From Candidatus Omnitrophota bacterium (lineage in GTDB: Bacteria; Omnitrophota; Gorgyraeia; Gygaellales; Profunditerraquicolaceae), in NCBI GenBank assembly GCA_028716705.1, contig JAQUPI010000001.1, positions 1,614-65,613 of the forward strand: a stretch of 64,000 nt of DNA, given 5' to 3'. Below, piece after piece: positions 2,975-60,940 of this stretch. A model generated the notes under the pieces. The model had not been told where the DNA came from. It worked only from the letters and a program-made list of their open reading frames with translations, and did no database searches. The translations under genes were made by a program, and so were the position numbers. Position 1 is the stretch's first letter, and every line of letters begins with the position of its first letter.

Positions 2975-3048
2975 GGGCGCAGAATGTGATTGCGGGGCTC
3001 ATAATTTAGCGGTAAAATAACTCAAGCAACGCTTTATGGAGAAAAACG

Positions 3049-3792
3049 ATGCCCGAAAAGATACTTATTGTGGATGACGACGCTGAATTCAGGCAGGAAT
3101 TGAGGGATTACCTGCAAGATTACCAAGTAGTGGAAGCGGCGAACGGGATGGAGGCCTTAAGGATAATAAACCGGGCAAATGAAATAGGAGTCGTCATTTT
3201 AGACGTGATGATGCCGAGGATAAGCGGTACGGAGGTATTAAGCGAAATCAAGAAAATAGAGCCCGATCTCGGTATAATTATTTTAACCGGCCACAGCTCC
3301 AAGGATGTTGCTATTGAAGCCCTGAAGAACCGCGCCGATGAATATCTCGAGAAACCGTCAAGCATAGAAAGCTTGAAAGAGATTATTGAAAAGCTGTTGT
3401 CCAAGAGGAACGGCGAGGCTGAGATAGACACGGCGAATACCGAAGGCAAGGTCCTTAAGGTAAGGCGTTTTATAGAGAAAAATTGTTTTAAAAAGACCAC
3501 CTTGAAAGAAGCCGCGGAAGCCGTCTGCCTAAGCCCAAAATACTTAAGCCGTGTATTCAAAGAAGAAACTGGCGCCGGGTTCAACGAATATAAATTGAAA
3601 ATAAAAATAGGCAGTGCCAAAGAGCTATTGGGCAAAAGCGGATGCAACGTGAATCAGATCTCGGACAAATTAGGTTATGAGAACGCGGAAAGCTTTATCA
3701 GGCAATTTCGTAAATTGACCCGCCAAACCCCCAGCGAATTCAGAAGAAAGCTGCAAGGCAAAAGGAAGAAAAAGGCCCCCCGCACCAGGTAG
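3049..3792 (+). CDS. Response regulator with receiver domain and AraC-type HTH output domain
   Basis: N-terminal KILIVDDD...ILDVMMP receiver motifs; C-terminal AraC-like helix-turn-helix (LSPKYLSRVFKEETG...FRKLTRQTPSEFR). Confidence 0.85.
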   Translation: MPEKILIVDDDAEFRQELRDYLQDYQVVEAANGMEALRIINRANEIGVVILDVMMPRISGTEVLSEIKKIEPDLGIIILTGHSSKDVAIEALKNRADEYLEKPSSIESLKEIIEKLLSKRNGEAEIDTANTEGKVLKVRRFIEKNCFKKTTLKEAAEAVCLSPKYLSRVFKEETGAGFNEYKLKIKIGSAKELLGKSGCNVNQISDKLGYENAESFIRQFRKLTRQTPSEFRRKLQGKRKKKAPRTR

Positions 3793-4012: not shown

Positions 4013-6628
4013 ATGGAAGATAATTGGCGCCAGCTCGATAGCCTGAGGAAGTACATCGATATTTTGAACGATATAATAGTCGTTACCGGAAAGGAAAAAA
4101 AGGTAACATTTATAAATAAAAAGGGCGCACAGTTATTAGGGTATAAAGAAAAGGAGATTGTCGGCAAAGAGCTGTCCGATTTCTTTCCTGAGGCGGCAAA
4201 AGAGGGCATAGGAAAAACCCTAAACGCATTGATCATCAAGAAGGCAAAGCCGGCGCATTACGAGCAGGGAATACTCGCAAAGAACGGCAGCCTCCGGCTT
4301 ATCAGTTGGCACAGCACGCTCTTAAAGGACGTAAACGGCAGGATAACCGGCGTGATAAGTTCCGGGAGGGACATTACAGAAAACAAACGCGCGGAAGAAA
4401 AAGAGCGCCATTTAGCGGGTTTCCCGCGGTTCAATCCTCACCCTGTGATGGAGCTGGACGCCGCAGGGAATTTGATCTACGCCAATCCCAGCGCTATCGC
4501 CTCACTAAAGAAATTAGGAAAGGGCAAAGACGCGACATGCTTTTTGCCTTCTGATTTCAAAGAGATCCTGAAATGCCTCTCCTCACAGAAAAACACGAAG
4601 TTTACGCGGGAAGTATGGATAAAAGGAAAATTCTTCATTGAGACGATAATTACCATCCCGGAATTAAGGGTAGCCCGCATTTACGCCCGCGATATCACGC
4701 CGAGCAAGATCTCAGAAAACATCTTGAAGAAGACAAGGGACTACCTGGAAAACCTGATCGATTACGCGAATGTGCCCATTATTGTATGGGATAGCGAGCT
4801 GTGTATAACCCGCTTTAACCGCGCCTTCGAAATACTTACCGGATACAAGGCCAAAGAAGTGCTGAGGAAAGATCTAAGTTTTCTTTTCCCGGCGAAAACA
4901 AAAGAGGAAACGCTCTTCTGGGTCCGCTGCACCCTTTGGGGCGAGCGTTTGGAATCCCAGGTTCTACCCATACGCTGCAAGGATAAATCGGTCAAATCCG
5001 TTATCTGGAGTTCGGCGACTATTTATGATGATAAAACGCATGAGATGCTTTCTGTCATCGCTCAGGGAAGGGACATTACCCAGGAAAAGGCGGCCCGCGA
5101 GGCGCTGCAAAAGCTTAACAGCGAACTGGAAGTAAAAATAGCCGAACGTACCGCTGAATTGACCGAGTCCTACCGGTTGACTGAAGCCCGCAACAAAATA
5201 CTTAATTTGATCGGTACGCAATCTTCGCGTAAAGAGTTCCAGGATTCTCTGCTTCTCCTGTTAAAGGAATGGTGTGGATGCGGAGCGGCCGAAATACGGA
5301 TAATAGCGGATGAGGAGAAAGAAAGCCCGCTCAAAAGGCGCGGGTTTCTTTCATCAGCGATAATACCCATACGCAATAATAAAAAGACTATCGGACACAT
5401 CATGCTCCGCGATGAAAAAGAAGGGGTTTTCTCTTTTAAAAGGCGGAAATTCCTTGAAACCCTTGTTCCTTTAATCGCGGAAGGCATCGGCAAATTTAAT
5501 ATGGAAGACAAGATCAGGCGCGATCATGCTATTCTCGAGGCGTTCTTCAAGCATACGGTCACGCCGCTGGTCTTTTTGAATACCCAGTTTAATTTTATCA
5601 GGGTTAATGAAGCTTACGCCAAGGCGTGGAAGAGAAAGGTTTGCGACTTCCCGGGCCGCAATCATTTTGAGTTATTCCCTCATGCCGAGACGCAAGAGAT
5701 TTTCGCGAACGCGCTGAGAGATAAAACGCCGTATCAGGCGTTCGCTCAGCCCTTTGTATTACCTGACCGGCCCGATTGGGACCTGAACTACTGGGATTGG
5801 ACGCTGGTGCCGGTAACGGATAATAAGGGGGATGTTGAGTTCCTGGTTTTTTCCTTGATGGATGTAACCGAACGCAAGTTAGCGGAAGAAAGCCTTATCT
5901 TAGCGCAGAAGGAACTGGAATCCGCCAAGCGGCTCTCGGATATAGGGGTGCTCGCGGCAACCGTCGCGCATGAACTGCGTAACCCGCTGGGGGTTATCCG
6001 CACAGCGGCTTATAACATAAAAAGAAAGACCTGCGAGCCGCTCCTGGACAATCACCTGCATAACATTGAGAAGAAGATAATCGAATCGGACCAGATCATC
6101 AATAATCTTTTATTTTATTCGCGTATTAAATCGCCCCACTATGAAAGGGTAAAGATTTACGAAATAATTAACGAATGCGTTATCGCGGCGGCGACCAGGT
6201 TTAAGGCCCGCGATGTCGCGCTTGTTAAAAAAATCAGCTCCCTCAAGGCGGATTACGTTGACGCCGATCCCTTGCAGATCGCCGAGATCATCAACAATAT
6301 CCTGAATAACGCCTATGATGCCTTACCGCAAGAAAATGGACGCATAGAAATAACCGCCCAAAAAGACGGCCAAGGCAATATTGAAATGGCCTTTAGCGAC
6401 AATGGGGAAGGTATAGGGGATGATGATATAAAGAAAATATTTGAGCCGTTTTTCACGACCAAAGCAAAAGGGACCGGGCTTGGTTTGACCGTGAGCCGTC
6501 AAATAGTAAGCCTGCACGGAGGAAAGATCTCCGCGGAAAGCAGGCGGAACGAAGGCACAACGGTCAAGGTGACCATACCGGCCAGGCGCTCAGGCGGACT
6601 AAATGAAAAAGAAACTTCTGATCATTGA
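4013..6628 (+). CDS. Multi-PAS sensor histidine kinase (HisKA + HATPase_c)
   Basis: Several PAS-like segments; H-box LAATVAHELRNPLGVI; ATPase G-boxes DNGEGIGDDDIKKIFEPFFTTKAKGTGLGLTVSRQIV. Start set at ATG 4013 (RBS AAGAGG), which is in frame with the tracked ORF 3911..6628. Confidence 0.85.
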   Translation: MEDNWRQLDSLRKYIDILNDIIVVTGKEKKVTFINKKGAQLLGYKEKEIVGKELSDFFPEAAKEGIGKTLNALIIKKAKPAHYEQGILAKNGSLRLISWHSTLLKDVNGRITGVISSGRDITENKRAEEKERHLAGFPRFNPHPVMELDAAGNLIYANPSAIASLKKLGKGKDATCFLPSDFKEILKCLSSQKNTKFTREVWIKGKFFIETIITIPELRVARIYARDITPSKISENILKKTRDYLENLIDYANVPIIVWDSELCITRFNRAFEILTGYKAKEVLRKDLSFLFPAKTKEETLFWVRCTLWGERLESQVLPIRCKDKSVKSVIWSSATIYDDKTHEMLSVIAQGRDITQEKAAREALQKLNSELEVKIAERTAELTESYRLTEARNKILNLIGTQSSRKEFQDSLLLLLKEWCGCGAAEIRIIADEEKESPLKRRGFLSSAIIPIRNNKKTIGHIMLRDEKEGVFSFKRRKFLETLVPLIAEGIGKFNMEDKIRRDHAILEAFFKHTVTPLVFLNTQFNFIRVNEAYAKAWKRKVCDFPGRNHFELFPHAETQEIFANALRDKTPYQAFAQPFVLPDRPDWDLNYWDWTLVPVTDNKGDVEFLVFSLMDVTERKLAEESLILAQKELESAKRLSDIGVLAATVAHELRNPLGVIRTAAYNIKRKTCEPLLDNHLHNIEKKIIESDQIINNLLFYSRIKSPHYERVKIYEIINECVIAAATRFKARDVALVKKISSLKADYVDADPLQIAEIINNILNNAYDALPQENGRIEITAQKDGQGNIEMAFSDNGEGIGDDDIKKIFEPFFTTKAKGTGLGLTVSRQIVSLHGGKISAESRRNEGTTVKVTIPARRSGGLNEKETSDH

Positions 6629-22495: not shown

Positions 22496-22656
22496 CCGCG
22501 CGGGGGGCACTGGGCAATCATTTATGCCAAGGTGCGACAGGATTGGGTGTAAGCAGTTGAAACGGGGAGGCCGTTGGCCGGCCTGAGAGTTCCGCAAAGT
22601 AAGCGGATTACCCGATGAACCTGATCTGGATAATGCCAGCGGAGGGAAAGGAGGAT
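22496..22656 (+). ncRNA. TPP (THI-box) riboswitch in the leader of thi4
   Basis: Conserved THI-box elements GGGGCAC...CUGAGA...ACCCGAUGAACCUGAUCUGGAUAAUGCCAGCGGAGGGAA read in the sequence. Confidence 0.8.
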
Positions 22657-22666
22657 GAATTGAAGG

Positions 22667-48859: not shown

Positions 48860-49489
48860 GTGAATATCCCCATCGTCTTCGAAGATGAATGGCTTTTGGT
48901 ATTGAATAAACCTTCCGGACTGCTTACCGTACCCACCCCCAAAATGGAATCCCGCACACTGAGCAGTATCCTTAATGATGACCTGAAAGAAAGAGGCATC
49001 GCCTACCGCTTATATCCCTGCCACCGCCTGGACCGGGAAACATCAGGCCTGATCATTTACGCTAAAGGAAAATCCATACAGAAAAAAATGATGGATGAAT
49101 TCAGGGGGAAAACGATAAAAAAAACATACATCGCTTTCTTACGCGAAAGCCCCCCCAAAGATAAAGGGAGGATCGTTTGTCCCATAGAAGGCCAAAACGC
49201 GCTTACCGAATACAGGGTTATCGAAAAGCGCAAAGGCTTCAGCGTGGCTGAAGCGATGCCGTTGACCGGCAGGACCAATCAGATAAGGATACATTTTAAA
49301 CAGATAGGGCATCCTTTGATAGGCGAGTCAAAATTCGCCTTCCGGAGGGATTTTAAGATCAAGGCAAAGCGCGCCATGCTGCATGCTAAAAAACTGGAGT
49401 TTATCCATCCAGTAACGCGTAAATTGTTATCTCTTAAGTCGCCTTTGCCGACTGATATGCTGGATTTTCTAAAAAGACATGAAAATTAA
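48860..49489 (+). CDS. RluA-family pseudouridine synthase
   Basis: GTG start; HRLDRETSGL catalytic Asp motif. Confidence 0.75.
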   Translation: MNIPIVFEDEWLLVLNKPSGLLTVPTPKMESRTLSSILNDDLKERGIAYRLYPCHRLDRETSGLIIYAKGKSIQKKMMDEFRGKTIKKTYIAFLRESPPKDKGRIVCPIEGQNALTEYRVIEKRKGFSVAEAMPLTGRTNQIRIHFKQIGHPLIGESKFAFRRDFKIKAKRAMLHAKKLEFIHPVTRKLLSLKSPLPTDMLDFLKRHEN

Positions 49490-50735
49490 TTCCGGGAAAA
49501 CGAAAAGGGGATTTTTGATATTTTCCTGGGCTCTGTATGACCTGGCGAACCAGTTTTTTGCCCTGAATATCGTAAGCCTGTATTTTGTGCGCTGGATAAC
49601 CCTTGAGATGGGGGCTCCGGAGATTTTTTACAGCATAGCGTTCGGAGTGTCTACGCTTTTCGTGGCTTTAGCGGGCCCAATCCTCGGGACGATCTCAGAC
49701 ATGACAGGCAGGCGCAGGTTCTTTCTGGTGAGCCTTACCCTTTTATCCGTCCTTTTTACCATGATGCTGGGTATGTATCAAAACATCATATACGCTTTAT
49801 TGATATTTATCATAGCCAATTTCGGATGCCAGACGGCGATCGTTTTCTATAATGCCATTCTTGTAAATATCACTCCCCGGCGCAGGGTCGGGCTGGTATC
49901 GGGATTCGGCAAGACCATGGGATATACGGGGGCCATAGCGGCGTTATACCTCATAAAGCCGTTCGTTTTAAAGAGCGGATACCGGGCTACATTTTTTCCC
50001 ACCGGGGTCTTATTTTTGCTCTTCGCTTTACCCTGCATGCTTTTTATAAAAGATAGGCCGCCCACTCAGGCGCTGGCGTGGAGTTATTTCGGGAAGAAAA
50101 AATTAGCCGAGATCTTTTCGATCCTGAAAACAACCGCGTTTGATACATATAAATTCCCGGGGCTTTTGGATTTTCTGAAGGCCTCATTTTGCGGTTTGTG
50201 CGCGGTGAACGCGGTCATTCTGTTTATGTCGATATATGCCACGCGCGCCTTTGGTTTAAATGAGGCCGGGGTGATCGCTTTGGTTTCTTACTCGACGCTC
50301 TTTGCCATCGGCGGAAGCTTCCTCTCCGGTTTCATCAGCGACTATTTCGGCCACAAACGCAGCCTGATAGCGGTATTTATCCTGTGGGGTATTTCTTTTA
50401 CGCTGGGGGCGTTTGTCAGGGATCCGCGCTGGTATTTGGCCATAGGCGCGCTGACCGGCGCCTCTTTGGGTTCGACATGGGTGGTTTCGCGCGCCATGGC
50501 AATAAATATCGTGCCCGCGCACAAGGTAGGAGAAGTATTCGGGCTCTTTAACCTTGTGGGTTACTTTTCGGCTATCATAGGCGCTTTCTTCTGGGGAGCG
50601 ATCATCTTTTTCCTTTCCCGTTTCGGCGAATCAGGGTACCGCATCGCGCTTGTCAGTTTAAATCTGTTCCTTGTCCTGGGGGTTCTCTTCCTTTTGCGCA
50701 TACCTGAAGATAGAAAAAAACCGGATGAGCCATGA
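49479..50735 (+). CDS. MFS transporter, LplT-like (lysophospholipid transporter) by context
   Basis: About 12 TM segments; ATGA overlap with the downstream Aas-like gene, mirroring E. coli lplT-aas. Confidence 0.6.
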   Translation: MKINSGKTKRGFLIFSWALYDLANQFFALNIVSLYFVRWITLEMGAPEIFYSIAFGVSTLFVALAGPILGTISDMTGRRRFFLVSLTLLSVLFTMMLGMYQNIIYALLIFIIANFGCQTAIVFYNAILVNITPRRRVGLVSGFGKTMGYTGAIAALYLIKPFVLKSGYRATFFPTGVLFLLFALPCMLFIKDRPPTQALAWSYFGKKKLAEIFSILKTTAFDTYKFPGLLDFLKASFCGLCAVNAVILFMSIYATRAFGLNEAGVIALVSYSTLFAIGGSFLSGFISDYFGHKRSLIAVFILWGISFTLGAFVRDPRWYLAIGALTGASLGSTWVVSRAMAINIVPAHKVGEVFGLFNLVGYFSAIIGAFFWGAIIFFLSRFGESGYRIALVSLNLFLVLGVLFLLRIPEDRKKPDEP

Positions 50736-53392
50736 ATAAAACATTAACGATCCCCGCCATCTTTAATGAAGTCGCTTCCAAGTTTTCCGATAAGACAGCC
50801 CTGAAGATCAAGCGCGACGGAGATTGGTTCAAACTTAGATACAGCCAGGTCAGGGAAAACGCCTTAAAAGTAGCGGCGTTCCTGATTAAGGAAGGTTGCA
50901 GGAAGAATGACGCCGCCTGCATTATTCTAGAAAATTGTCCGGAATGGCCGGTGATTTATCTGGGTATCGTCTACGCGGGCTTGACCTGCGTCCCCCTTGA
51001 CGCGCACTTAACCGGCCAGGAAGTAAAAAGCCTTGCCGCCGATAGCGGGGCAAAGATATTATTTTGCTCACGCGAGATATATTCAAGTAAAATTGAAAAA
51101 AATATCGGAGACGATAGAATTAAGCCCTTTGTCCTGGAAAACTTTTCCGATATAGAAAACATCACGGCTCCGCCGGCCTTTTTGCCGGAGGTCGATCCGG
51201 ATGATATAGCCTCTTTAATTTATACCTCAGGAACTACCGCGCTTCCCAAAGGGGTCCTATTAAGCCACAATAACATATGCTCAAACGCCATGAGCCTTCT
51301 AAAACTGGATATCTGCCTGGAATCGGATAGCACGCTTTCCATTCTGCCGTTACATCATACTTACGCCTTTATGGTTGCCTTGGTCGTGCCTCTTTTCTTA
51401 GGGGCGACAGTCACATATTGCCCCAGTTTTAAGGCTGAAGACATAAGCCGGACCATAAGAGAAGGCCGGATCTCTATTTTTCCGGGCGTGCCGCAGCTTT
51501 TTTCCATGCTGCATAAAGCAATATCCGAACGCGTGAAGAAAATCCCTCGCGTCCTCCTATTCTTTTTATTGCCTTTTATCCGGCCAAAGATACGCCAGGA
51601 GCTCGGTAACAGCTTGAGGCTTTTGGTCAGCGGCGGAGCAAGGCTTGACCCGCGAACCGGCCGCGGCTTATCGCGCTTACTTGGCATCAAGATGGTCGAG
51701 GGCTACGGCTTGACGGAAACTTCTCCTGTCGTGACTTTAAACCCGGTCAAGAAAATAAAATTCGGCTCTGTGGGCTTACCTATTCCGGATGTCCAGATCA
51801 GGATTTTGAACCCGGATAGATCGGGAGTGGGGCAGGTGCTGATCAAGGGCCCGAATGTAATGCGCGGATATTTTAAGCATCCTGAATGGAGCCGGGCTGT
51901 GATAAAAGACGGCTGGTTTTATTCCGGGGACCTGGGCTATATCGACGCGGAGGGCTACCTTTTCCTTGTCGGCCGGGAGAAGGACGTGATCGTATTGAGT
52001 TCAGGGAAGAATATTTATCCTGAGGAATTGGAAGAATATTACGGTAAGAGCCCGTTCATAAAGGAAATTTGTATTATGGACGTAAAGCAGGAGCGGTTCG
52101 GCCAATTGATCGATACCCTTCAGGCGGTAGTGGTCCCGGACCTGGAATATTTCAAGCGCAAGAAAATGTCTGATGTGCAGGGAAAGATCCGCTGGGAACT
52201 GGAAAACCTCGCCAGCGCCCTGCCCTCCCACAACCACATTATGGGGTTTATCCTCACCAAGGATGAATTGCCGCGGACGGCACTGAGGAAGATCAAAAGA
52301 TATAAGGTTAAGGAGAAATATTTTTCCAGAGGAGAACCCAACGGGAAACCCAATGGCGAAGGCCGCCTTGAAGCCGCGCAGGAGGCGGTTTTTTCCGAAG
52401 AAGACGCCAGGCTCCTGGATAAAGAGGTCGCCAGAAAGACCATTGATTATATTTCCAGAGAGATAAAAAGACCAGTAAATCTCAACAGTCATCTTGAGAT
52501 AGACCTGGGAATAGATTCCTTGACCAAGGTGGACCTGGCGCTGGGGCTGGAAGAACTTTTTAAGGTCAAACTCCCTGAAGAATTATTCTATAGCATCTCC
52601 ACCATCAAAGAACTTATTATAAAGCTCTCCGAAATAACCGGCGAAGGCCGGCATAAAGCCGATGAAACACGAAAAACCTGGAGCCAGATCCTTTCCAAGC
52701 CTTCGGATAAGAAATTACAGGCGGAGCCGCGTTTCGCGGATAAGTTATTCACCCTCGCGTGCAAAATTTCATTTACAATTATTTTAAAAGTCTTTTGGCT
52801 GTTGAAGGTAAAAGGGAGGGATAATCTGCCCGCATCCGGGCCTTATCTGGTTTGCCCCAACCACGCCAGCTATTTAGACGGATTTTTTGTTTTTATCGGC
52901 CTTTCCCGCAGGCTTACTGACCTATTCTTCCTGGGTTATAGCGACATTCTGGAACATCCCCTTTTAAAATGGGCGATCAAGCCGGCAAGGCTTATCCCGA
53001 TCGACCCAAATACAAACTTAACAGACGCCATGCAGGCGGTATCTTATCTGCTTTCACAGGGGAAGATCGTTTGTATCTTTCCCGAAGGAAGGCGCTCTAT
53101 AAATGAGAACATAGGAAAGTTCAAAAAAGGAATAGGGATATTGATCAGGGAGCTGAATATTCCCGTCGTTCCGGCCTATATTAAAGGTTCGTATAAGTCT
53201 TGGCCCAGGACGAAGCGGTTCCCGCGTTTTTATCCGGTAAAGGTAATTTTCGGGCGGCCGAAGACAGCGAAAGACCTGTTAGAAGGAAAGGCCGGCAAAG
53301 ACGATTATGAGACCATTGCGGCTAATTTAAGGGAAGAGGTCATAGGATTGGCGGATCCACAAAATTTACAGAAAGTAGACTCAAACCATTGA
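50732..53392 (+). CDS. Tri-domain acyl-AMP ligase (FadD-like) / acyl-carrier (phosphopantetheine-binding) / PlsC-type lysophospholipid acyltransferase fusion (Aas-like with permuted domain order)
   Basis: AMP-binding motif YTSGTTALPKGV; carrier DLGIDSLTKVDL; acyltransferase HxxxxD (CPNHASYLDG) and FPEGRRS blocks. Confidence 0.75.
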   Translation: MNKTLTIPAIFNEVASKFSDKTALKIKRDGDWFKLRYSQVRENALKVAAFLIKEGCRKNDAACIILENCPEWPVIYLGIVYAGLTCVPLDAHLTGQEVKSLAADSGAKILFCSREIYSSKIEKNIGDDRIKPFVLENFSDIENITAPPAFLPEVDPDDIASLIYTSGTTALPKGVLLSHNNICSNAMSLLKLDICLESDSTLSILPLHHTYAFMVALVVPLFLGATVTYCPSFKAEDISRTIREGRISIFPGVPQLFSMLHKAISERVKKIPRVLLFFLLPFIRPKIRQELGNSLRLLVSGGARLDPRTGRGLSRLLGIKMVEGYGLTETSPVVTLNPVKKIKFGSVGLPIPDVQIRILNPDRSGVGQVLIKGPNVMRGYFKHPEWSRAVIKDGWFYSGDLGYIDAEGYLFLVGREKDVIVLSSGKNIYPEELEEYYGKSPFIKEICIMDVKQERFGQLIDTLQAVVVPDLEYFKRKKMSDVQGKIRWELENLASALPSHNHIMGFILTKDELPRTALRKIKRYKVKEKYFSRGEPNGKPNGEGRLEAAQEAVFSEEDARLLDKEVARKTIDYISREIKRPVNLNSHLEIDLGIDSLTKVDLALGLEELFKVKLPEELFYSISTIKELIIKLSEITGEGRHKADETRKTWSQILSKPSDKKLQAEPRFADKLFTLACKISFTIILKVFWLLKVKGRDNLPASGPYLVCPNHASYLDGFFVFIGLSRRLTDLFFLGYSDILEHPLLKWAIKPARLIPIDPNTNLTDAMQAVSYLLSQGKIVCIFPEGRRSINENIGKFKKGIGILIRELNIPVVPAYIKGSYKSWPRTKRFPRFYPVKVIFGRPKTAKDLLEGKAGKDDYETIAANLREEVIGLADPQNLQKVDSNH

Positions 53393-53416
53393 CAAATTTC
53401 GGCTTAGTAGTAGAAT
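53389..53416 (+). promoter_or_regulatory. Sigma70-like promoter TTGACA-N16-TAGAAT upstream of the rhs gene
   Basis: -35 53389-94 (overlaps the upstream stop), -10 53411-16; RBS GAAAGGA before ATG 53472. Confidence 0.45.
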
Positions 53417-53471
53417 GCTGACAAATTAAGAGATTGTTCTTGGTTATTTATTAAAACTCAGAAAGGATCCA

Positions 53472-56400
53472 ATGTCTGAGATAAAAGCCAAGGAAATAAG
53501 AACAAAACTCAGGGTCATATTTATGACCCTATTTTTTTGCCTGTTTAGTAAGCTTGCATTTGCAGAAACCACAGCCAGTATATCCGTATCCGGAAGCAGA
53601 GGCGTCATTGATATTTCAACATCCACTTTTTTTTCTGTGGACCCGGATACCGGAAGGACCGGCGGGACTGTAGCCATATACAGGGACAGTTCCAAGATCT
53701 ACGAAGCCTCTACTACAAAATATCCCTCTTGGGCTTATTCTTTTAGATACAGCACGATAGAGTTTATTGATGGCTCCCATACTTTTTCGGTCGTCGCTAC
53801 TTCGTGGGACGGCTCCTCTGCTTCAGATTCGCAAGCAATTCAGACAGATAATTCCCCCCGAATAAATATAATCTCTCCGCAAGGCGAAACGCGAGGAGTA
53901 GTAGACGTTAACATATCCTACAGCTACCCAAGCAGTCATAACACTTCTCCCAATATGTACCTTGATTTATACACAAATCCCGCTAATCCGAATCCAAGCT
54001 ATACCATGTATCTTGCCCTGAGCAATACCGCTGAAACGCAAGGAAACTGGATTCTTAAAATCGATACCACTGCTTGGAGAGACGGGGCCAGGACCATAAG
54101 GGCTGTTACCAGGAATATCAGAAACGCGGTGACTGCCACCTCGGATGTCGTGAGTAATAACACCCCTTATGTCATTTTATCTCCCGGAGACGGAAAAATA
54201 ACGAGAGGGATAATTCCCGTCAATGTAACTTACAGCTTTCCCAGCACTGCTTCAGCTGTAGGTATTCCCAATGCATATTTGACTTTTTATATCGATAATG
54301 TCGCGAAAAGCGCATATTGGTTCGCTTTAAGCGATACTTCCGAGACTACGGGCATTTGGAGCTTTAATATAGATACGAGTAATTGGGCGGAAGGCAGCGC
54401 TCATACTTTAAAAATTACAACACTGACGCACCCCAACCAGGCTATCATGGTCTCGAATGTAATAGTCGCAAAGAAAACTACCGAAGTCCCGCTCACCCGT
54501 CTTCTTTCCAAGGATAAGGGCACGGTTGTGGGCGAGCCAATCAATGTGGCTACCGGCAATATGTTCACTTCGCAAACCGATATCCTCATTCCTGGCCGCG
54601 AGATCCCGCTTGAGCTCTCCCGCACCTATAACAGCCAGGATGACTTTGGAGGGCAATTCGGTTATGGCTGGCGCTCTAATTTTGATATCGTTTTAACCGA
54701 TGAATCCGACCGGGTCATTGAGGTGGATGAAACAGGGGTCTATACCATTTACGATAAGGATTCCGATGGAACCTATAAACCCTCAGCCGGGAAATATTCT
54801 GTTTTAACCAAGAATCCCGAAGGAACCTATACGATATTAAGGAAGAGCGGCCGTAAACTCTACTTTGACAGCCAGGGTTGGCTTATAAAAATAGGAGGCA
54901 GGAACGGGAACTTTATCAATATCCTGCGCGACTCCAACGGCACGATAACAGAGATCAGCGACGCCTCAACCAGGAAATTATTATTTACCGCTGACAGCCA
55001 GGGAAGGATTGTCCGGGTAACTGACCAGCAGGAAAGAACCTTTAAATACGAATATGACACAAACGGCGATCTCATCAAAACCATTGACCCCTTAAATCAG
55101 GAGACTCTTTATCAATACGATAGTAATCACAACCTCATCCGGCAAACCGATGCCAATAGCCATTCGTTATACTTTGAATACGATTCCTCTGATCGCGCCT
55201 ATCATTCCTGGCAGGATGAGCATAATAATGAGGTGACTTTATCCTTTGACCCGGAAAATAAGACTACCATTACAACCGATTCTTTAGGCAATGCTACTAA
55301 ATACGAATATGACGATTACGGCTTAGTTACCAAAATCACCGACAGCCAGAATAAGGTCCAGAGTTTTATCTGGGATAGCGACTTAAATAAAACCGCATCC
55401 ACTGACCAGAATGGGAACACCGCTCTTTTCACCTATGACTCAAGGGGCAACCTCTTGACCGTAAAAGACCCGCTCAATAACACCGCCGCCTTTACCTATG
55501 AGCCGGATTTTGACCTGGTAAGCTCTATTACGGATGCCCTGGGAGCTGTCACGCAGTATACCTACGATGCCAGAGGTAATTTAATTAAAATAAAAGACGC
55601 CCTGGATAATGCCACTGACTGCATTTACAATGTGCAAGGAGACCTTATCCAGCTAAAAGACGCGAACAATAATATTACTAATTTTACCTATGATGCTTTT
55701 GGCAATCTCGCCCAGGCAGTTGATGCCCTGAATAACCCTACAAGCTTTACTTATGATATACTTGGCAACCTCGTTCGGACTACGGATGCCGTAGGCAACG
55801 CTACTCAATTTACCTACGATGCGTTAAACCGGCTTATCCGGATAACTTACCCGGATAATTCCCAGGCAGCCAGGGCTTATGATCCCGTAGGTAATTTGAT
55901 AACCTCTACTGATCCTAACAACCAAATCACCAGCTATGCCTATGATACAGTCAACCGCCTCATCCAGGTAACCGATCCTCAAGGCAATATTACTCAATGT
56001 GCTTATGACAGCGAAGGAAACCGCACCTCTGCCGTTGATGCCGCGGGAAACGTTCAGAGGTATTTCTACGATAGTTTAAACCGGCCAATCCGCACCCTTG
56101 ATGCTTTAAATAACCAGGCCAATTTTGTTTACGACCCTGCGGGAAATCTTATTTCCCGGACCGATGCCAATGGCAATACCATAAACTATACCTATGATTC
56201 CCTGAACCGTCTGCTCAAAAAACAATACCCGGATTCAACCGAGGAGGCTTTCGACTATGATCCCCGGGGAAATATGCTCAGCTGTTCTGATCCTGAGATC
56301 TCCTATAATTTGAGCTATGACGCGTTAGGCAGGCTAATCGATCTAACCGATTCGAATAACGCGAAGCTTTCCTACGCCTATGATCCCGTGGGAAATAAGA

Positions 56401-57965
56401 TCAAAACGACCACTCCCGAAGACAGAACTATCAGTTACTATTACGACGGATTAAATCAGCTGGCTTCTCTTGTGGATATCTACGGAAAATCCACCACCTA
56501 TACCTATGACAGCTTGGGCAGGAGGATAAAAACCACGCTTCCTAACTCAACTACCGCATCCTATACTTATGATGCCTTAAGCCGGCTGCTTAGTTTAACC
56601 AATAAAACCAGCTCAGGCGCGATCATCTCAAGCTATACCTATACTTATGATAGTGTGGGTAATCGCCTCACCAGAGTAGAGCCGCATTTAAAGACCTCCT
56701 ATGCCTACGATGATCTATATCAGCTTACCCAAAGCTCCTTCACCAGGCTTAAAGGCCACAAAAGCGATATAGAGGAAGATCTCGAGGAGGATGACGATGA
56801 AGATGATGACGAAGAAGAAAAAGACAGCCGCAAAGAGCCAAAAGAACGCTTGACTGAAGCCTATACCTATGATGTTCTGGGCAATCGTCTCACCTCCTTG
56901 AAAGATACCTACACTTATAATCCCCTGAATCAGCTCTTGGCCACAGATAAATATGCCTACGAATACGACCATAACGGCAATCTCATCCGTAAGACCGAGC
57001 TTGACGAAAACGAAGCCCCGGTTACCTTTAATTATGAATACGATTACGAGAACAGGTTAAAGCAGGTCCGGATCGAAAAAGAAGACGAAAGTAAGATAAT
57101 CTCCTTTGGCTATGATCCTTTCGGAAGAAGAATAAGAAAAACAATACAAAAAGAAGATAAGACAGAGACCACAACCTACATATATGACAACGAGGATATC
57201 ATCCTGGAATACCGCAGGGATGGTTCAAAGCCGTCCAAACAAGAAGTAGTCCGCTACACCCACGGTCCGGGCACGGATGAGCCGATTTCGATGGAGCGAA
57301 AGAAAAAACGCTTCTACTACCACTATGACGGCTTAGGCAGCGTCACTGAATTTACCAGCCAGAAACAAAAGACAGCTGAGCGCTACGAATATGACTCCTT
57401 TGGCAATCTCTACCGCCAAGGCAACCGCACCAAAAACACATACACCTTCACCGGCAGGGAATTCGATAAAGAAACCGGCCTCTACTACTACCGCAACCGT
57501 TACTATGATCCTAAAGTAGGCAGGTTCATTACCCAGGATCCATTGGGCATGGTCGACGGTCCGAATATGTATGCGTATGTCAGGAATAATCCAATTACTT
57601 TTGTAGATCCGTGGGGATGGTGTAAAAAAACTGGATGGTGGCCAAGATGGTTAAATTTAATTGTGCCTGGCTATAGAAATTATGGTGGTCCATCTAGAAG
57701 TGGGCCTTTGCTACCAGAAGACTTATTGGATGCTGCATTTCAAAGGCATGATATTGGTTATAGGGAAGGAAATTTAGATTTTGCTGATTTGCAATTATTA
57801 AATGATCTTTCTAATCTTCCGCCGGATCCTCGAAACTGGGGAGAAGGAGTAAATCCTATTTATGCTAGACTATACCGGAAAAGTGCATTTATTATTTTTG
57901 CGACTCGACAAACAATCCGACAAGGTACAAAAGAACTAGAACGATTAGAATATCTTGCAGTGTAA
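53472..57965 (+). CDS. rhs: Rhs/YD-repeat polymorphic toxin (1497 aa): Sec signal peptide, three tandem ~105-aa N-terminal repeat domains, RHS shell with YD repeats, DPxGL/PWGW autoproteolysis motif, C-terminal PLA2-like toxin domain
   Basis: Signal MTLFFCLFSKLAFA; RHS hallmark VATGNMF...GYGWRSNFD; dozens of YxYDxxGNL repeats; FITQDPLGMVDGPNMYAYVRNNPITFVDPWGW core end; then a 114-aa AT-rich tail. Confidence 0.9.
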   Translation: MSEIKAKEIRTKLRVIFMTLFFCLFSKLAFAETTASISVSGSRGVIDISTSTFFSVDPDTGRTGGTVAIYRDSSKIYEASTTKYPSWAYSFRYSTIEFIDGSHTFSVVATSWDGSSASDSQAIQTDNSPRINIISPQGETRGVVDVNISYSYPSSHNTSPNMYLDLYTNPANPNPSYTMYLALSNTAETQGNWILKIDTTAWRDGARTIRAVTRNIRNAVTATSDVVSNNTPYVILSPGDGKITRGIIPVNVTYSFPSTASAVGIPNAYLTFYIDNVAKSAYWFALSDTSETTGIWSFNIDTSNWAEGSAHTLKITTLTHPNQAIMVSNVIVAKKTTEVPLTRLLSKDKGTVVGEPINVATGNMFTSQTDILIPGREIPLELSRTYNSQDDFGGQFGYGWRSNFDIVLTDESDRVIEVDETGVYTIYDKDSDGTYKPSAGKYSVLTKNPEGTYTILRKSGRKLYFDSQGWLIKIGGRNGNFINILRDSNGTITEISDASTRKLLFTADSQGRIVRVTDQQERTFKYEYDTNGDLIKTIDPLNQETLYQYDSNHNLIRQTDANSHSLYFEYDSSDRAYHSWQDEHNNEVTLSFDPENKTTITTDSLGNATKYEYDDYGLVTKITDSQNKVQSFIWDSDLNKTASTDQNGNTALFTYDSRGNLLTVKDPLNNTAAFTYEPDFDLVSSITDALGAVTQYTYDARGNLIKIKDALDNATDCIYNVQGDLIQLKDANNNITNFTYDAFGNLAQAVDALNNPTSFTYDILGNLVRTTDAVGNATQFTYDALNRLIRITYPDNSQAARAYDPVGNLITSTDPNNQITSYAYDTVNRLIQVTDPQGNITQCAYDSEGNRTSAVDAAGNVQRYFYDSLNRPIRTLDALNNQANFVYDPAGNLISRTDANGNTINYTYDSLNRLLKKQYPDSTEEAFDYDPRGNMLSCSDPEISYNLSYDALGRLIDLTDSNNAKLSYAYDPVGNKIKTTTPEDRTISYYYDGLNQLASLVDIYGKSTTYTYDSLGRRIKTTLPNSTTASYTYDALSRLLSLTNKTSSGAIISSYTYTYDSVGNRLTRVEPHLKTSYAYDDLYQLTQSSFTRLKGHKSDIEEDLEEDDDEDDDEEEKDSRKEPKERLTEAYTYDVLGNRLTSLKDTYTYNPLNQLLATDKYAYEYDHNGNLIRKTELDENEAPVTFNYEYDYENRLKQVRIEKEDESKIISFGYDPFGRRIRKTIQKEDKTETTTYIYDNEDIILEYRRDGSKPSKQEVVRYTHGPGTDEPISMERKKKRFYYHYDGLGSVTEFTSQKQKTAERYEYDSFGNLYRQGNRTKNTYTFTGREFDKETGLYYYRNRYYDPKVGRFITQDPLGMVDGPNMYAYVRNNPITFVDPWGWCKKTGWWPRWLNLIVPGYRNYGGPSRSGPLLPEDLLDAAFQRHDIGYREGNLDFADLQLLNDLSNLPPDPRNWGEGVNPIYARLYRKSAFIIFATRQTIRQGTKELERLEYLAV
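56893..57505 (+). repeat. 613-bp segment of rhs (RHS core end) that is 100% identical to 58375..58987 in the orphan cassette
   Basis: Nucleotide identity checked by eye at both ends and in the middle (offset 1482 bp); identity breaks at 57506/58988, then decays. Confidence 0.85.
57621..57962 (+). other. C-terminal toxin domain 1 of Rhs: phospholipase A2-like (parvovirus VP1u/PLA2 motif)
   Basis: YRNYGGPSRSGPLLPEDLLDAAFQRHDIGY aligns with the viral PLA2 consensus YxGPG...DAAAKEHDEAY (Ca loop + HD catalytic dyad with the same about 18-aa spacing). Confidence 0.55.
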
Positions 57966-57978
57966 AGGAGGGATAAGA

Positions 57979-58212
57979 ATGAAACTCAAAGATAATCAAA
58001 TAATTAAAATATTTGTATTGTCGTTTCTCCTTATGGAATTTATGTTAATTAGTTTTTGCTTCGTTTCATGCGAAAATGCTCCTCTATTAATTCGCTTGAT
58101 AATTATCTTATTAGTTATAATTTGTTGTTTATGCCTATTTTATTTTATTTTTAGATTTTTAATCTGGATTATAAAAAAAATTGTAATTGTGAAGAATAAA
58201 TTAACACGATAA
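57979..58212 (+). CDS. Putative cognate immunity protein 1: 77-aa hydrophobic (2-3 TM) membrane protein
   Basis: RBS AAAGGAGGG; Cys/Ile/Leu-rich TM helices; immediately downstream of the toxin; AT-rich. Confidence 0.5.
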   Translation: MKLKDNQIIKIFVLSFLLMEFMLISFCFVSCENAPLLIRLIIILLVIICCLCLFYFIFRFLIWIIKKIVIVKNKLTR

Positions 58213-58256
58213 GAATAATAATGGAATTCCGGGGAGGTACCAATTCCGGGTAGAAG

Positions 58257-58320
58257 ACGCTCTTTATAATTTTTTCTTGATTTCATTAGATATGAAATAA
58301 TTCCTTCCGCCTTCTAATCA
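58257..58320 (+). repeat. Junction repeat R1 (about 65 bp) downstream of immunity gene 1; imperfect copy at 59873..59940
   Basis: CGCTCTTTATAA...AATAATTCCTTCC...TTCTA shared blocks; about 75% identity. Confidence 0.6.
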
Positions 58321-58328
58321 AATCTGCG

Positions 58329-59453
58329 ATGAAAATAGAAATATCCAAAATCACCCCCTTAGGTAACCGTTTAACCTCCTTGAAAGATACCTACACTTAT
58401 AATCCCCTGAATCAGCTCTTGGCCACAGATAAATATGCCTACGAATACGACCATAACGGCAATCTCATCCGTAAGACCGAGCTTGACGAAAACGAAGCCC
58501 CGGTTACCTTTAATTATGAATACGATTACGAGAACAGGTTAAAGCAGGTCCGGATCGAAAAAGAAGACGAAAGTAAGATAATCTCCTTTGGCTATGATCC
58601 TTTCGGAAGAAGAATAAGAAAAACAATACAAAAAGAAGATAAGACAGAGACCACAACCTACATATATGACAACGAGGATATCATCCTGGAATACCGCAGG
58701 GATGGTTCAAAGCCGTCCAAACAAGAAGTAGTCCGCTACACCCACGGTCCGGGCACGGATGAGCCGATTTCGATGGAGCGAAAGAAAAAACGCTTCTACT
58801 ACCACTATGACGGCTTAGGCAGCGTCACTGAATTTACCAGCCAGAAACAAAAGACAGCTGAGCGCTACGAATATGACTCCTTTGGCAATCTCTACCGCCA
58901 AGGCAACCGCACCAAAAACACATACACCTTCACCGGCAGGGAATTCGATAAAGAAACCGGCCTCTACTACTACCGCAACCGTTACTACGACCCTGCGATC
59001 GGCCGCTTCATCACCCAGGACCCGCTGGGGATGGTCGATGGGCCGAATATGTATACGTATGTAAACAATAATCCGGTGAATTTTGTGGATCCGTGGGGAT
59101 TGTGCGGGACAGATAAAAGTAAGCATTGGGGTCCAGAATGGTTAGAAAAATTAATTCCTGATTATGAAGGATATGGCGGGCCTGATAGAACAGATCTAAC
59201 TTTTAAAACAAGACCAACAGATAGCATGGACGAGATATTTATGCAACATGATTTCTTATGGTTTAAGGGATATGGAAAACAAGCAGATACAATAATATTT
59301 TCTAATCTTGTTAATCTACCTTTAAATCCCTATAACTGGGAAAATAAACCGAGAAATCTTATTTGGGCTGTGTTATATCGTGAAAGCGCTATTATATATT
59401 TTGGATATAAGGAGATAATAAAAGGAGAAGCGAATGATAAAAAAACCAACTAG
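58329..59453 (+). CDS. Orphan rhs C-terminal cassette: truncated RHS core fragment (homology from about 58363) plus alternative diverged PLA2-like toxin domain (59103..59450)
   Basis: The N-terminal MKIEISK is not homologous and lacks an RBS; from LGNRLTSLKD onward it is identical or near-identical to Rhs residues about 1134-1376, then ends DPWGLCG + 116-aa tail with YEGYGGP...DEIFMQHDFLW. Confidence 0.7.
   Translation: MKIEISKITPLGNRLTSLKDTYTYNPLNQLLATDKYAYEYDHNGNLIRKTELDENEAPVTFNYEYDYENRLKQVRIEKEDESKIISFGYDPFGRRIRKTIQKEDKTETTTYIYDNEDIILEYRRDGSKPSKQEVVRYTHGPGTDEPISMERKKKRFYYHYDGLGSVTEFTSQKQKTAERYEYDSFGNLYRQGNRTKNTYTFTGREFDKETGLYYYRNRYYDPAIGRFITQDPLGMVDGPNMYTYVNNNPVNFVDPWGLCGTDKSKHWGPEWLEKLIPDYEGYGGPDRTDLTFKTRPTDSMDEIFMQHDFLWFKGYGKQADTIIFSNLVNLPLNPYNWENKPRNLIWAVLYRESAIIYFGYKEIIKGEANDKKTN
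58375..58987 (+). repeat. Second copy of the 613-bp identical rhs segment
   Basis: See 56893..57505. Confidence 0.85.
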
Positions 59454-59793
59454 AGTTATTTTAATTTCAGGTCTAGGTTTAATTATTGGAATTTTTAATA
59501 TTTTTGTATACTCTAATCATAATAGTCCGATTTTTCTTACTATCGGAGTTACATGTTTTATACTAAGTATAGGTTTATTTAAATTAAATAATTGGGCACG
59601 TATGCTGACTATAATTATGGCTAGCGTGTTCATTATAATTTATGGTGCATTGCTAATATATACATTTGCATATTACGAGCAACATCATGGGTTTGCCGGA
59701 ATCGCTCTTATTTTTCACTTGCCTTTATTATTGCTATCCATTTGGTCTTTAGATTGTTTGAATAACCCAGGTATTAAAACATTATTTCATTGA
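59434..59793 (+). CDS. Putative cognate immunity protein 2: 119-aa polytopic membrane protein
   Basis: RBS AAAGGAGAAG; 3-4 predicted TM helices; overlaps the orphan toxin stop; AT-rich. Confidence 0.5.
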   Translation: MIKKPTRVILISGLGLIIGIFNIFVYSNHNSPIFLTIGVTCFILSIGLFKLNNWARMLTIIMASVFIIIYGALLIYTFAYYEQHHGFAGIALIFHLPLLLLSIWSLDCLNNPGIKTLFH

Positions 59794-59872
59794 AACAACC
59801 AATTATGGGAATTCTAGGGACACAATACTTATTTTAATTAAGTAATTGTGGAAAAATAACAAAAATAGCAAG

Positions 59873-59940
59873 GCGCTCTTTATAAGTCTTTCTCATCCGT
59901 TTAGGTATAAAATAATTCCTTCCATCGATTCTATTAAACT
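59873..59940 (+). repeat. Junction repeat R2 (imperfect copy of 58257..58320) downstream of immunity gene 2
   Basis: See R1. Confidence 0.6.
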
Positions 59941-60002
59941 TTCATTAACCTTAAAGAAAGGGGGCGCTTCTATATTTCGCATCCTTTTCTCCAAACCAAC
60001 CC

Positions 60003-60030
60003 TTTACTAATCCGTAAATTATTGTATAAT
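60003..60030 (+). promoter_or_regulatory. Sigma70-like promoter TTTACT-N16-TATAAT upstream of the PfkB kinase gene
   Basis: Read directly; 10 nt before ATG 60041. Confidence 0.4.
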
Positions 60031-60040
60031 ACCTGCTAAT

Positions 60041-60940
60041 ATGAGCATAATCGTATTGGGAACAGTGGCATTGGACACGGTAAAGACGCCGTTTGGCAGC
60101 AAAAAGCATATGCTGGGCGGCTCTGCGGCGCATTTTTCCATGTCGGCGCGCCTGTTCGCCAAGGTGAATTTAGTCGCGATCATCGGAGAGGACTTTCCTC
60201 CTAAATATATCGAATTTCTGCGTAAAAAAGGCCTGATCCTGACTTCATTGATCAAGGAAAAGGGAAGGACTTTTAAATGGCAGGGGGAATACAGGGGAGA
60301 CTTGAATACCGCCCTTACCTTAAATACAGAGCTGGGCGTGCTTTCGGCGTTCCGTCCTTGCATTTCCAAAGAACAGAGGAAGATAAAACATATTTTCCTG
60401 GCCAATGTTGACCCGGATATCCAGAGGCACCTGCTTTCCAGCATGCAGTCCCCGCAGCTGGTGGGGTTGGACAGCATGAACTACTGGATACACCATAAGC
60501 GTCAGGGGCTGGTACGCCTTTTAAAGAAGGTGGATATCTATGTCGCCAATGATCAGGAAGCCAGGGATCTATCGGGAGAAACGAACTTGATCAAAGCGGC
60601 TAAATGTTTATCCAGCTACGGCCCGAAGATGGTCCTGATCAAAAAAGGCGAGCACGGCGTAATTTTTTACACCGATAAATTCATCATCGCCATACCCGCC
60701 TACCCCACGGATAAAGTGATCGACCCGACGGGAGCCGGGGATACCTTTGCCGGAGGGTTTATGGGTTATTTGACCAAGGCAAGGAAGATAAATTCTGAAA
60801 CACTTAAGCAGGCGATCGCCTTCGGCACGATCGCGGCTTCCTTCAATGTGGAGGGTTTCGGCCTGGAAAGGACTTCCAGGCTTAGTTTAAGCGAATTGGA
60901 GCGCAGGCTTTCCCGTTTCAGGGAGCTTGTTGTTTTTTAA
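60041..60940 (+). CDS. PfkB/ribokinase-family sugar kinase
   Basis: DPTGAGDTFAGGF PfkB signature 2; GG N-terminal motif. Confidence 0.8.
   Translation: MSIIVLGTVALDTVKTPFGSKKHMLGGSAAHFSMSARLFAKVNLVAIIGEDFPPKYIEFLRKKGLILTSLIKEKGRTFKWQGEYRGDLNTALTLNTELGVLSAFRPCISKEQRKIKHIFLANVDPDIQRHLLSSMQSPQLVGLDSMNYWIHHKRQGLVRLLKKVDIYVANDQEARDLSGETNLIKAAKCLSSYGPKMVLIKKGEHGVIFYTDKFIIAIPAYPTDKVIDPTGAGDTFAGGFMGYLTKARKINSETLKQAIAFGTIAASFNVEGFGLERTSRLSLSELERRLSRFRELVVF

Follow-up and report, generated by a model that had tools for sequence, protein, structure and literature searches.

A putative phospholipase A2-tipped Rhs toxin with a Sec-type signal peptide and a spare orphan cassette in Candidatus Omnitrophota

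What would an Rhs polymorphic toxin of an uncultured Candidatus Omnitrophota bacterium do to its target, how would it leave the cell, and what is the second toxin module behind it? These questions are raised by a locus in a 64,000-nt stretch of DNA (GCA_028716705.1, contig JAQUPI010000001.1), here termed the window, in whose positions all coordinates are given unless a related contig is named. Four open reading frames (ORFs) on its forward strand encode a 1497-aa protein, a small hydrophobic protein, a 374-aa protein and a 119-aa hydrophobic protein; an earlier, sequence-only reading had placed all of them correctly, as calling the ORFs again established. We hold with considerable confidence that the locus specifies a phospholipase A2 (PLA2)-like membrane toxin that is encapsulated by an Rhs shell and released by autoproteolysis, together with membrane-protein immunity and a spare cassette ready for recombination. 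The elements that carry the first part of this reading are the following.

53472..57965, + strand: main Rhs polymorphic toxin gene, 1497 aa (Pfam and NCBIfam profiles)
54531..54743, + strand: DUF6531 domain, the N-terminal "plug" of Rhs shells, spanning VATGNMF and GYGWRSNFD (Pfam)
54744..57389, + strand: YD/RHS-repeat shell (RHS_repeat stretches, TEN_YD-shell matches)
57390..57620, + strand: Rhs-associated core and C-terminal autoproteolysis motif DPLG...DPWGW, residues 1307-1383 (TIGR03696)
57621..57962, + strand: CT1, 114-aa PLA2-like toxin tip (family profile)
59103..59450, + strand: CT2, 116-aa PLA2-like tip with the same invariant residues as CT1 (family profile)

Profile searches place the main protein firmly among Rhs proteins. 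It matches RHS_repeat (PF05593, Pfam) at E=5.9e-100 in 13 stretches, YD_repeat_2x (NCBIfam TIGR01643) at E=2.6e-82, DUF6531 (PF20148, Pfam) at E=6e-22 over residues 354-424, and Rhs_assc_core (NCBIfam TIGR03696) at E=2e-27 over residues 1307-1382. The hallmarks recognized in the sequence-only reading are indeed present: VATGNMF is found at residue 359, GYGWRSNFD at residue 397 and DPWGW, of the autoproteolysis motif, at residues 1379-1383, while YxYD occurs 19 times. As judged from these motifs and matches, the product is a bona fide Rhs/YD protein. The variable tip begins directly past DPWGW, the point at which DNA identity between the main gene and the orphan collapses, and autoproteolytic cleavage at DPWGW is predicted from the motif together with the core domain. 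The exact 1497-aa protein is deposited at NCBI as MDD4938837.1 / MDD5552307.1, from metagenome-assembled genomes (MAGs) of Candidatus Omnitrophota bacterium; a literature search on the accession numbers gave no match.

The activity of the tip had been left open, and the orphan had been thought to end in a different toxin. The latter view does not hold, because CT1 and CT2 are 37% identical across their whole length and belong to one family; the former question can be answered, in that the activity is assignable as PLA2-like. Used as single queries against Pfam and the Protein Data Bank (PDB), CT1 and CT2 gave no PLA2 match even at E<=10, at most noise, and a word-indexed search of 5.8 billion proteins returned only three relatives. 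An exhaustive HMMER search with a profile of CT1, CT2 and P0003, the tip of a related orphan, gathered 170 cluster representatives at E<=1e-3. The domain lies at the protein C-terminus in most members, about half of the matches are short proteins, and members range from Rhs and giant proteins to small phage-encoded ones. Its consensus reads PxYGNYGGPGWSGG...PxDSMDxxFxxHDxxY...ADxxL...LPxNPxxW...YR..A...F.

The conservation within this family is that of an enzyme active site. Among 52 sequences, G23, D37, H43, D44 and F93 (CT1 numbering) are invariant; Y18, P32, D34 and D56 are nearly so, as is a Tyr or Trp at the Y52 position. HMMER aligns the conserved residues with the Ca2+ loop, H48/D49 and Y52 of the classical secreted PLA2s (sPLA2s) of cattle and snakes. 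In the full-length protein, the Ca2+ loop of CT1 corresponds to Y1401-x2-Y1404-G-G-P and the putative catalytic pair to H1426-D1427 (codons 57747-57752), with Y1430 and D1439 beyond it. The Ca2+ loop of the family consensus and its His-Asp signature are those of sPLA2s. Searched against PDB, the 52-sequence profile matches snake, bovine and rice sPLA2 chains over the Ca2+ loop and the HD motif (E=6e-8 to 1e-6), and the top 60 matches of a profile of the 20 closest cysteine-free members are only sPLA2s and the VP1 proteins of parvovirus/adeno-associated virus (E=0.006-0.1). Individual members, compared with Pfam, match PF08398 in 24 of the 52 cases, PF00068 in 17 and PF09056 in one (E=0.086), which makes PF08398 the most frequent Pfam match in the family. 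Some members retain the classical cysteines (YGNWCGPG / HDxCY / CDxxLxxC); CT1 and CT2 have one Cys each, at the cleavage junction, and the disulfides of multi-Cys sPLA2s are absent. The tips are identified, through their family, as putative divergent, cysteine-free secreted PLA2 domains that appear closest to the parvovirus type, PF08398.

The second line of evidence concerns the genes that follow the tips.

57976..58212, + strand: imm1, small membrane protein with 2 transmembrane (TM) segments, candidate immunity factor (hydrophobicity scan)
59434..59793, + strand: imm2, 119-aa membrane protein with 4 TM segments, candidate immunity factor (hydrophobicity scan)

That a membrane protein follows each toxin tail was already part of the sequence-only reading, and both genes have strong Shine-Dalgarno sites. 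The ATG of imm1 at 57976 lies 10 nt past the rhs stop with AAGGAGG ahead of it (an alternative TTG start is at 57955), while the first 20 nt of imm2 overlap the end of the orphan, with AAGGAG upstream of the start. There is no detectable relationship between imm1 and imm2, the latter of which has a weak DUF7144 match. A small polytopic membrane protein directly follows the PLA2 tip in six of six cases, namely the two in the window and those of the related loci L002 (124 aa), L004 (132 aa, after a third PLA2 variant), L006 (111 aa) and L007 (77 aa). The similarities run across loci: imm1 is 51% identical over 41 aa (E=2e-10) to the L007 protein, which follows the tip of the Rhs protein P0163, and imm2 is 29% identical over 90 aa (E=2e-5) to the L006 protein, which follows the tip of P0044. 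In addition, a protein identical to imm1 directly follows CT1 in L004. This constitutes good guilt-by-association evidence, which stops short of proof, for imm1 and imm2 as candidate immunity factors.

The third line of evidence comes from the other end of the main protein.

53472..53564, + strand: Sec-type (signal peptidase I) signal peptide, residues 1-31, MSEIKAKEIRTKLRVIFMTLFFCLFSKLAFA with cleavage before ET (sequence reading and hydrophobicity scan)
53580..54476, + strand: three tandem all-beta repeats of ~100 aa, residues 37-129, 130-232 and 233-335 (sub-threshold Pfam)

The N-terminus, MSEIKAKEIRTKLR-VIFMTLFFCLFSKLAFA/ET, combines an n-region of net charge +3, a hydrophobic core of ~15 residues and an A-x-A site (AFA/E). 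Signal peptides were called by rule here, from sequence features and the hydrophobicity scan rather than with SignalP, and were found in each of the six complete Rhs proteins with a PLA2 tip that were inspected (the window protein, P0163, P0044, P0004, P0164 and P0121), which upholds the Sec signal peptide proposed earlier. P0163 is 50% identical to the window protein over the full length, the N-terminal region included; it surfaced only by an indirect route, a homologue search with the N-terminal 352 aa having returned no relatives. The three repeats are probably Ig-like. Their Pfam matches are all sub-threshold (Big_7, E=0.0074; Big_13, E=0.051), and a single-sequence AlphaFold2 model of the region predicts beta strands, but with a confidence score (pLDDT) of 40. 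A Pfam scan of the main protein detected no PAAR, VgrG-binding or clade domain at the N-terminus, and no wall-binding domains were detected by Pfam search.

The fourth line of evidence bears on the second module, which had been read as a displaced orphan cassette.

56892..57504, + strand: 613-nt block, 100% identical to 58374-58986 (DNA alignment)
58329..59453, + strand: orphan rhs fragment, 374 aa, with a novel 10-aa start, a shell and core stub, and CT2 (NCBIfam, DNA alignment)
58226..58308, + strand: conserved inter-module element, ...GCTCTTTATAA-N-TTTCT...TTAGATATGAAATAATTCCTTCC (DNA self-comparison)
59870..59923, + strand: second copy of the inter-module element, closing the array of cassettes ahead of pfkB (DNA self-comparison)
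53389..53416, + strand: sigma-70-like promoter candidate TTGACA-16-TAGAAT, 5' of the main rhs gene (11/12 matches, a consensus match only)
56772..56819, + strand: acidic low-complexity insertion within the shell, EEDLEEDDDEDDDEEE (sequence reading)

The orphan ORF corresponds only to the last 374 aa of an rhs gene and matches Rhs_assc_core at E=1.3e-27; a separate functional small Rhs protein was considered and rejected, since most of the shell is absent. Past the 613-nt block, identity between the main gene and the orphan is ~75% as far as the PWG codons and then falls to background. The block would be a recombination substrate common to both genes. Just 5' of the start of their homology sits the acidic insertion (EEDLEEDDDEDDDEEEKDSRKEPKE, 56754-56846, residues ~1095-1125), the equivalent of which in P0163 is a lectin-like insertion of ~180 aa; with the acidic peptide EEDDDEDD as a search pattern, a distant Rhs protein of Thermoleophilaceae was among the matches listed. 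G+C content drops from ~46% to ~30% in both tip/immunity segments, as is typical of acquired Rhs tips.

The earlier description of the orphan as promoter-less can be set against a simple consensus scan, which found no promoter-like site with at least 10/12 matches upstream of the orphan, the best site within 53200-60200 being the one ahead of the main gene, and no obvious Shine-Dalgarno sequence precedes the orphan; a consensus scan, however, is weak evidence. The inter-module element, ~55-80 nt long (...GCTCTTTATAA.T.TTTCT...TTAG.TAT.AAATAATTCCTTCC), lies 3' of each immunity gene and 5' of the next orphan stub, and recurs in L004 at 4905-4922 and 5835-5852. The element may mark where a cassette ends, be a scar left by recombination or have a regulatory function; no terminator-like hairpin was detected there.

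Relatives of the locus indicate what such an arrangement may be for. The exact tips are present in two further metagenome contigs, L004 and L005, which match the window at 98-99.7% identity wherever they share sequence with it. The modules are ordered as follows.

Window: main::CT1, imm1, orphan::CT2, imm2, pfkB
L004 (JGI 3300029288), first part: main rhs core, CTx, 132-aa TM protein, 641-aa signal-peptide protein
L004, next part: 237-aa alpha/beta-hydrolase-tipped orphan, 113-aa TM protein, short-stub orphan::CT1, imm1, start of a long-stub CT2 orphan
L005 (ENA ERZ27247363): collinear with L004 to the stub, then CT2, imm2, pfkB, yqeY; no CT1 module

No continuous ORF spans 57965-59453 in these relatives, which hold the same modules rearranged; this and the 613-nt identity bear out the displaced cassette. 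CTx, a third PLA2-like variant, by itself matches PF08398 at E=0.0026. The alpha/beta-hydrolase orphan rhs stub and the 113-aa membrane protein after it occupy 3683-4841 of L004, and the tip of this 237-aa orphan contains GHSWGG and matches Abhydrolase_1/8; the 641-aa protein (1668-3593), which lies between toxin cassettes, has weak TPR/CTLH matches. All four tips known at the locus (three PLA2 variants and one alpha/beta-hydrolase) are predicted to be lipid-directed. CT1 appears to lie silent as an orphan in one population and to be the tip that is expressed in another, exactly as the model of orphan displacement predicts. Given that sister populations carry other arrangements, module switching appears to occur in nature.

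The point of exchange falls somewhere within 57404-57593. One simple crossover joining an L004-type main gene to its CT1 orphan was considered and is unsupported in detail, owing to a window-private allele at 57506-57560. Set against ~3% divergence between strains, the perfect 613-nt repeat points to recent gene conversion. The repeat also leads to the prediction of a deletion derivative, main::CT2, which was not found in a metagenome scan; the scan returned only L009, a continuation of the L004 strain.

Taken together, these features suggest the following mechanism. The 1497-aa protein would be exported through its signal peptide, and its three N-terminal, probably Ig-like, domains may mediate attachment to a surface or binding of the target. 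A closed Rhs shell, made up of the DUF6531 plug and the YD repeats, would surround the C-terminal tip, which an aspartyl autoprotease in the Rhs core would free as a 114-aa fragment by cutting after DPWGW. To judge from its catalytic residues, the tip would remove a fatty acid from the glycerophospholipids of a neighbor's membrane, leaving lysophospholipids, membrane damage and death; imm1, to judge from its position, would act at the membrane to shield the producing cell and its kin. The orphan module (rhs stub, CT2 and imm2) would be a silent spare cassette, and recombination at the 613-nt perfect repeat could join CT2 to the main gene or swap modules.

Several points weigh against this reading. 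The PLA2 assignment is transitive, passing through the family profile rather than from CT1 or CT2 directly, and the phospholipase activity, Ca2+ dependence and substrate of both tips are predictions. The Ca2+ loop departs from the consensus YGNYGGPG, being YRNYGGPS in CT1 and YEGYGGPD in CT2: the equivalents of Y25, Y28 and G30 are kept, and that of G32 is replaced by Ser in CT1 and by Asp in CT2. The sPLA2 disulfides are missing, and the AlphaFold2 model of the tip is moderate (pLDDT 73.8, with the Ca2+-loop region below 50). The immunity role is read from gene position, and the type of immunity protein does not simply track the tip subtype, CT1 being paired with a 2-TM protein and the 64%-identical P0003 with a 4-TM protein. 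The Ig-like call on the N-terminus draws on sub-threshold matches, the private allele at the exchange point does not fit a clean single crossover, and the negative result for type VI secretion system (T6SS) genes covers the window and related loci, so that a T6SS or another delivery system may lie elsewhere in the genome.

An alternative view of the same locus is that of a weapon against prey or host rather than kin, in which an ultra-small cell lyses the membranes of attached microbes and the membrane proteins merely prevent self-damage. The biology of the phylum lends it some appeal, because Omnitrophota, ultra-small bacteria of the PVC group, have been proposed to live mostly by preying on or parasitizing other microbes (PMC10066038), and PLA2-tipped Rhs proteins with signal peptides recur in their MAGs (P0004 and P0044 besides the window protein). 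Outside the phylum, the same tip family is carried by a 3805-aa protein of Elusimicrobiota. Membrane lysis would also fit the tips of the variant locus, all of which are predicted to be lipid-directed. The polymorphism of tips and immunity genes among ~99%-identical populations, however, is a signature of competition between kin or strains, and arrays of orphans with matched immunity genes would be unnecessary for predation; moreover, two Omnitrophota surveys, one of them PMC10066038, make no mention of Rhs or phospholipase. In our opinion, predation is an unlikely purpose. A bolder proposal seems to us similarly doubtful: that Rhs proteins with a signal peptide and a cysteine-free PLA2 are a T6SS-independent lysis weapon typical of the ultra-small Omnitrophota lineage and directed against prey or host, with phospholipase immunity proteins of a new, bilayer-acting class and lysophospholipid repair by the upstream major facilitator superfamily (MFS) and Aas-like genes as a second, non-cognate layer.

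It could also be argued that the tips are not enzymes at all, being membrane-binding or pore-forming peptides with the PLA2 fold, or that the membrane proteins encoded behind them have no part in immunity. The degenerate Ca2+ loop described above speaks in this direction, and so does the loose relation between immunity type and toxin subtype. The PLA2 fold, in general, tolerates toxic variants without catalysis, and snake venoms hold catalytically dead PLA2 homologues. Yet the invariance of H43, D44 and D37 across 52 divergent members, with D56 and the Tyr/Trp at the Y52 position nearly invariant, is what would be expected of a catalytic site, and the membrane protein after the tip in all six loci argues for an immunity role. 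We regard the non-enzymatic alternative as quite improbable, and an enzymatic, PLA2-like tip paired with membrane-protein immunity is retained.

Delivery by a T6SS, with VgrG, PAAR, Hcp and sheath genes located elsewhere in the genome, has to be weighed because most characterized Rhs toxins of diderms are T6SS cargo and because the gene survey covered the window and the neighboring loci of relatives rather than the whole genome. T6SS substrates come from the cytoplasm and carry no signal peptide; the canonical cleavable Sec signal peptide of the window protein, kept in every complete homologue inspected, argues against this route, as does an N-terminus composed of three all-beta repeats in place of a PAAR, VgrG-binding or clade domain. 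The ~45 other window proteins scanned or listed, all encoded on the + strand, are housekeeping enzymes, regulators and hydrogenase subunits; as the sequence-only reading had noted for T6SS, PAAR and VgrG, no components of these or of a type VII secretion system are among them, and no T6SS gene was found in the 64 kb or next to four related loci. We consider T6SS delivery very improbable. A Tc-toxin BC component was rejected, as there are no TcB/SpvB or TcA-type domains.

Export of the Rhs protein by way of its signal peptide thus remains the preferred route, to which the earlier label of WapA-like Sec delivery applies in part. The signal peptide and the lack of T6SS genes in the window support it, but the host of WapA is monoderm, which leaves the comparison an analogy. 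As the host is presumed to be diderm, Sec export would reach the periplasm only, and Sec does not account for passage through the outer membrane. Outer-membrane secretins have been described for Omnitrophota (PMC10066038).

The surroundings of the locus offer several observations of their own. Directly 5' of rhs, at 49479-53392 (+ strand), are genes for an MFS transporter (418 aa) and an 886-aa fusion, which overlap by 4 nt. The fusion comprises AMP-binding, acyl carrier protein (PP-binding) and PlsC-type acyltransferase domains, with partial sub-threshold NCBIfam matches that include Aas, acyl-[ACP]--phospholipid O-acyltransferase. The pair amounts to the parts list of an LplT/Aas repair system, and its adjacency to a PLA2 rhs gene may be coincidence. 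In E. coli, LplT/Aas lysophospholipid repair guards against phospholipase attack (PMC11416262). The two genes were rejected as part of the locus for want of support, the adjacency being absent in L002, L006 and L007.

In L002 (3196-11600; GCA_041643075.1), a 1655/1658-aa signal-peptide Rhs protein with two N-terminal lectin-like domains (DUF1080/3keto-disac_hyd) is encoded inside an ilv-leu operon, and 3' of it are small genes and orphan modules, including duplicated Imm32-like genes and the PLA2 orphan P0003. A stand-alone 110-aa PLA2-like member, P0043, is encoded at 6001-6333 of L010 / L011 (JGI 3300032202; ENA ERZ23487396), a phage-like contig that also encodes, a few genes upstream of P0043, a tape-measure protein (PhageMin_Tail). 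Some short family members may be phage-encoded PLA2s and a possible bacterial-virus parallel to parvovirus VP1u PLA2. Within the window (1-64000), strand bias is extreme: all 57 gene-like ORFs of at least 150 aa 5' of 50 kb lie on the + strand, as do later genes. A thiamine pyrophosphate (TPP) riboswitch precedes thiamine genes at 22553-22664, and no tRNA genes were found in the 64 kb. Contig JAQTUM010000004.1 of GCA_028710245.1 differs from the window by 2 mismatches over the 16.6 kb that they share.

The analysis adds a predicted PLA2 activity for two tips that current Pfam models miss, and it defines a tip family of ~170 cluster representatives, for which small membrane proteins of two families are proposed as immunity factors. 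It also documents toxin-cassette switching between near-identical wild populations, and gives a first description, in uncultured Omnitrophota thought to be predators or parasites, of Rhs toxins that have a Sec signal and are predicted to attack lipids. The accepted picture of Rhs polymorphic toxin loci is unchanged by these results.

Among known systems, the closest precedent is the Tox-PLA2 tip, which is carried by toxins with RHS or ALF repeats (Zhang, de Souza, Anantharaman, Iyer & Aravind 2012, Biol Direct 7:18; PMC3482391). The catalogue gives its route as "T2SS", that is, a signal peptide and the general secretory pathway, predicts an attack on membrane lipids and lists no immunity family (PMC3482391), for which candidate partners are now supplied. 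The window toxin shares with Tox-PLA2 the PLA2-fold tip on an RHS-repeat protein and the signal-peptide route. It differs in that Tox-PLA2 is of the Streptomyces type (1kp4/group XIV/PF09056; DxC[ST], CxxHxxxYxN and a conserved C), the cysteines of which are missing from the window tips, and in the small polytopic membrane proteins that are consistently linked to the present tips. With the parvovirus VP1u PLA2 (PF08398, Phospholip_A2_4) the tips have in common a small size, the lack of cysteines and an HDxxY motif, and its YxGxG Ca2+ loop has a counterpart in the consensus of their family; the viral enzyme, unlike the tips, is a capsid domain for escape from endosomes, and CT1 and CT2 fall below detection by PF08398.

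The similarity to WapA of Bacillus subtilis, a Sec-dependent Rhs/YD toxin that acts by contact, extends to the signal peptide, YD shell, polymorphic C-terminal toxin and absence of T6SS genes (here from the window); its N-terminal surface-associated domains and downstream immunity gene have putative counterparts in the window. WapA belongs to a monoderm host and is wall-anchored, with tRNase tips and cytosolic immunity proteins; the window host, by contrast, is presumed to be diderm, the N-terminal domains are unrelated, the tip is PLA2-like and the immunity candidates are membrane proteins. The T6SS phospholipase effectors Tle1-5, with their Tli partners, are likewise interbacterial toxins; they attack the phospholipids of membranes from within the periplasm, and every effector has an immunity gene of its own. 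The window tips differ in their predicted PLA2 fold from the Tle proteins, which belong to the GxSxG lipases or phospholipase D enzymes and are delivered by T6SS; the immunity candidates are small polytopic membrane proteins, whereas Tli proteins are periplasmic or lipoproteins. The GHSWGG orphan of L004 is closer to the Tle class than the PLA2 tips are.

Finally, the orphan module recalls the rhs orphans of enterobacteria, reportedly described by Koskiniemi et al. in 2014 as the rhs-main / rhs-orphan orphan-cassette system of Salmonella. In both, the main rhs gene is followed by a 5'-truncated copy with a shared core and its own immunity gene (a candidate one in the window), and recombination between repeats would switch the expressed tip; the enterobacterial orphans are T6SS-dependent, whereas here switching is seen as natural metagenome alleles rather than in experimental evolution. 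The architecture, the orphan cassette and the logic of recombination are textbook Rhs biology, and PLA2-tipped RHS toxins with a Sec signal have been catalogued since 2012.

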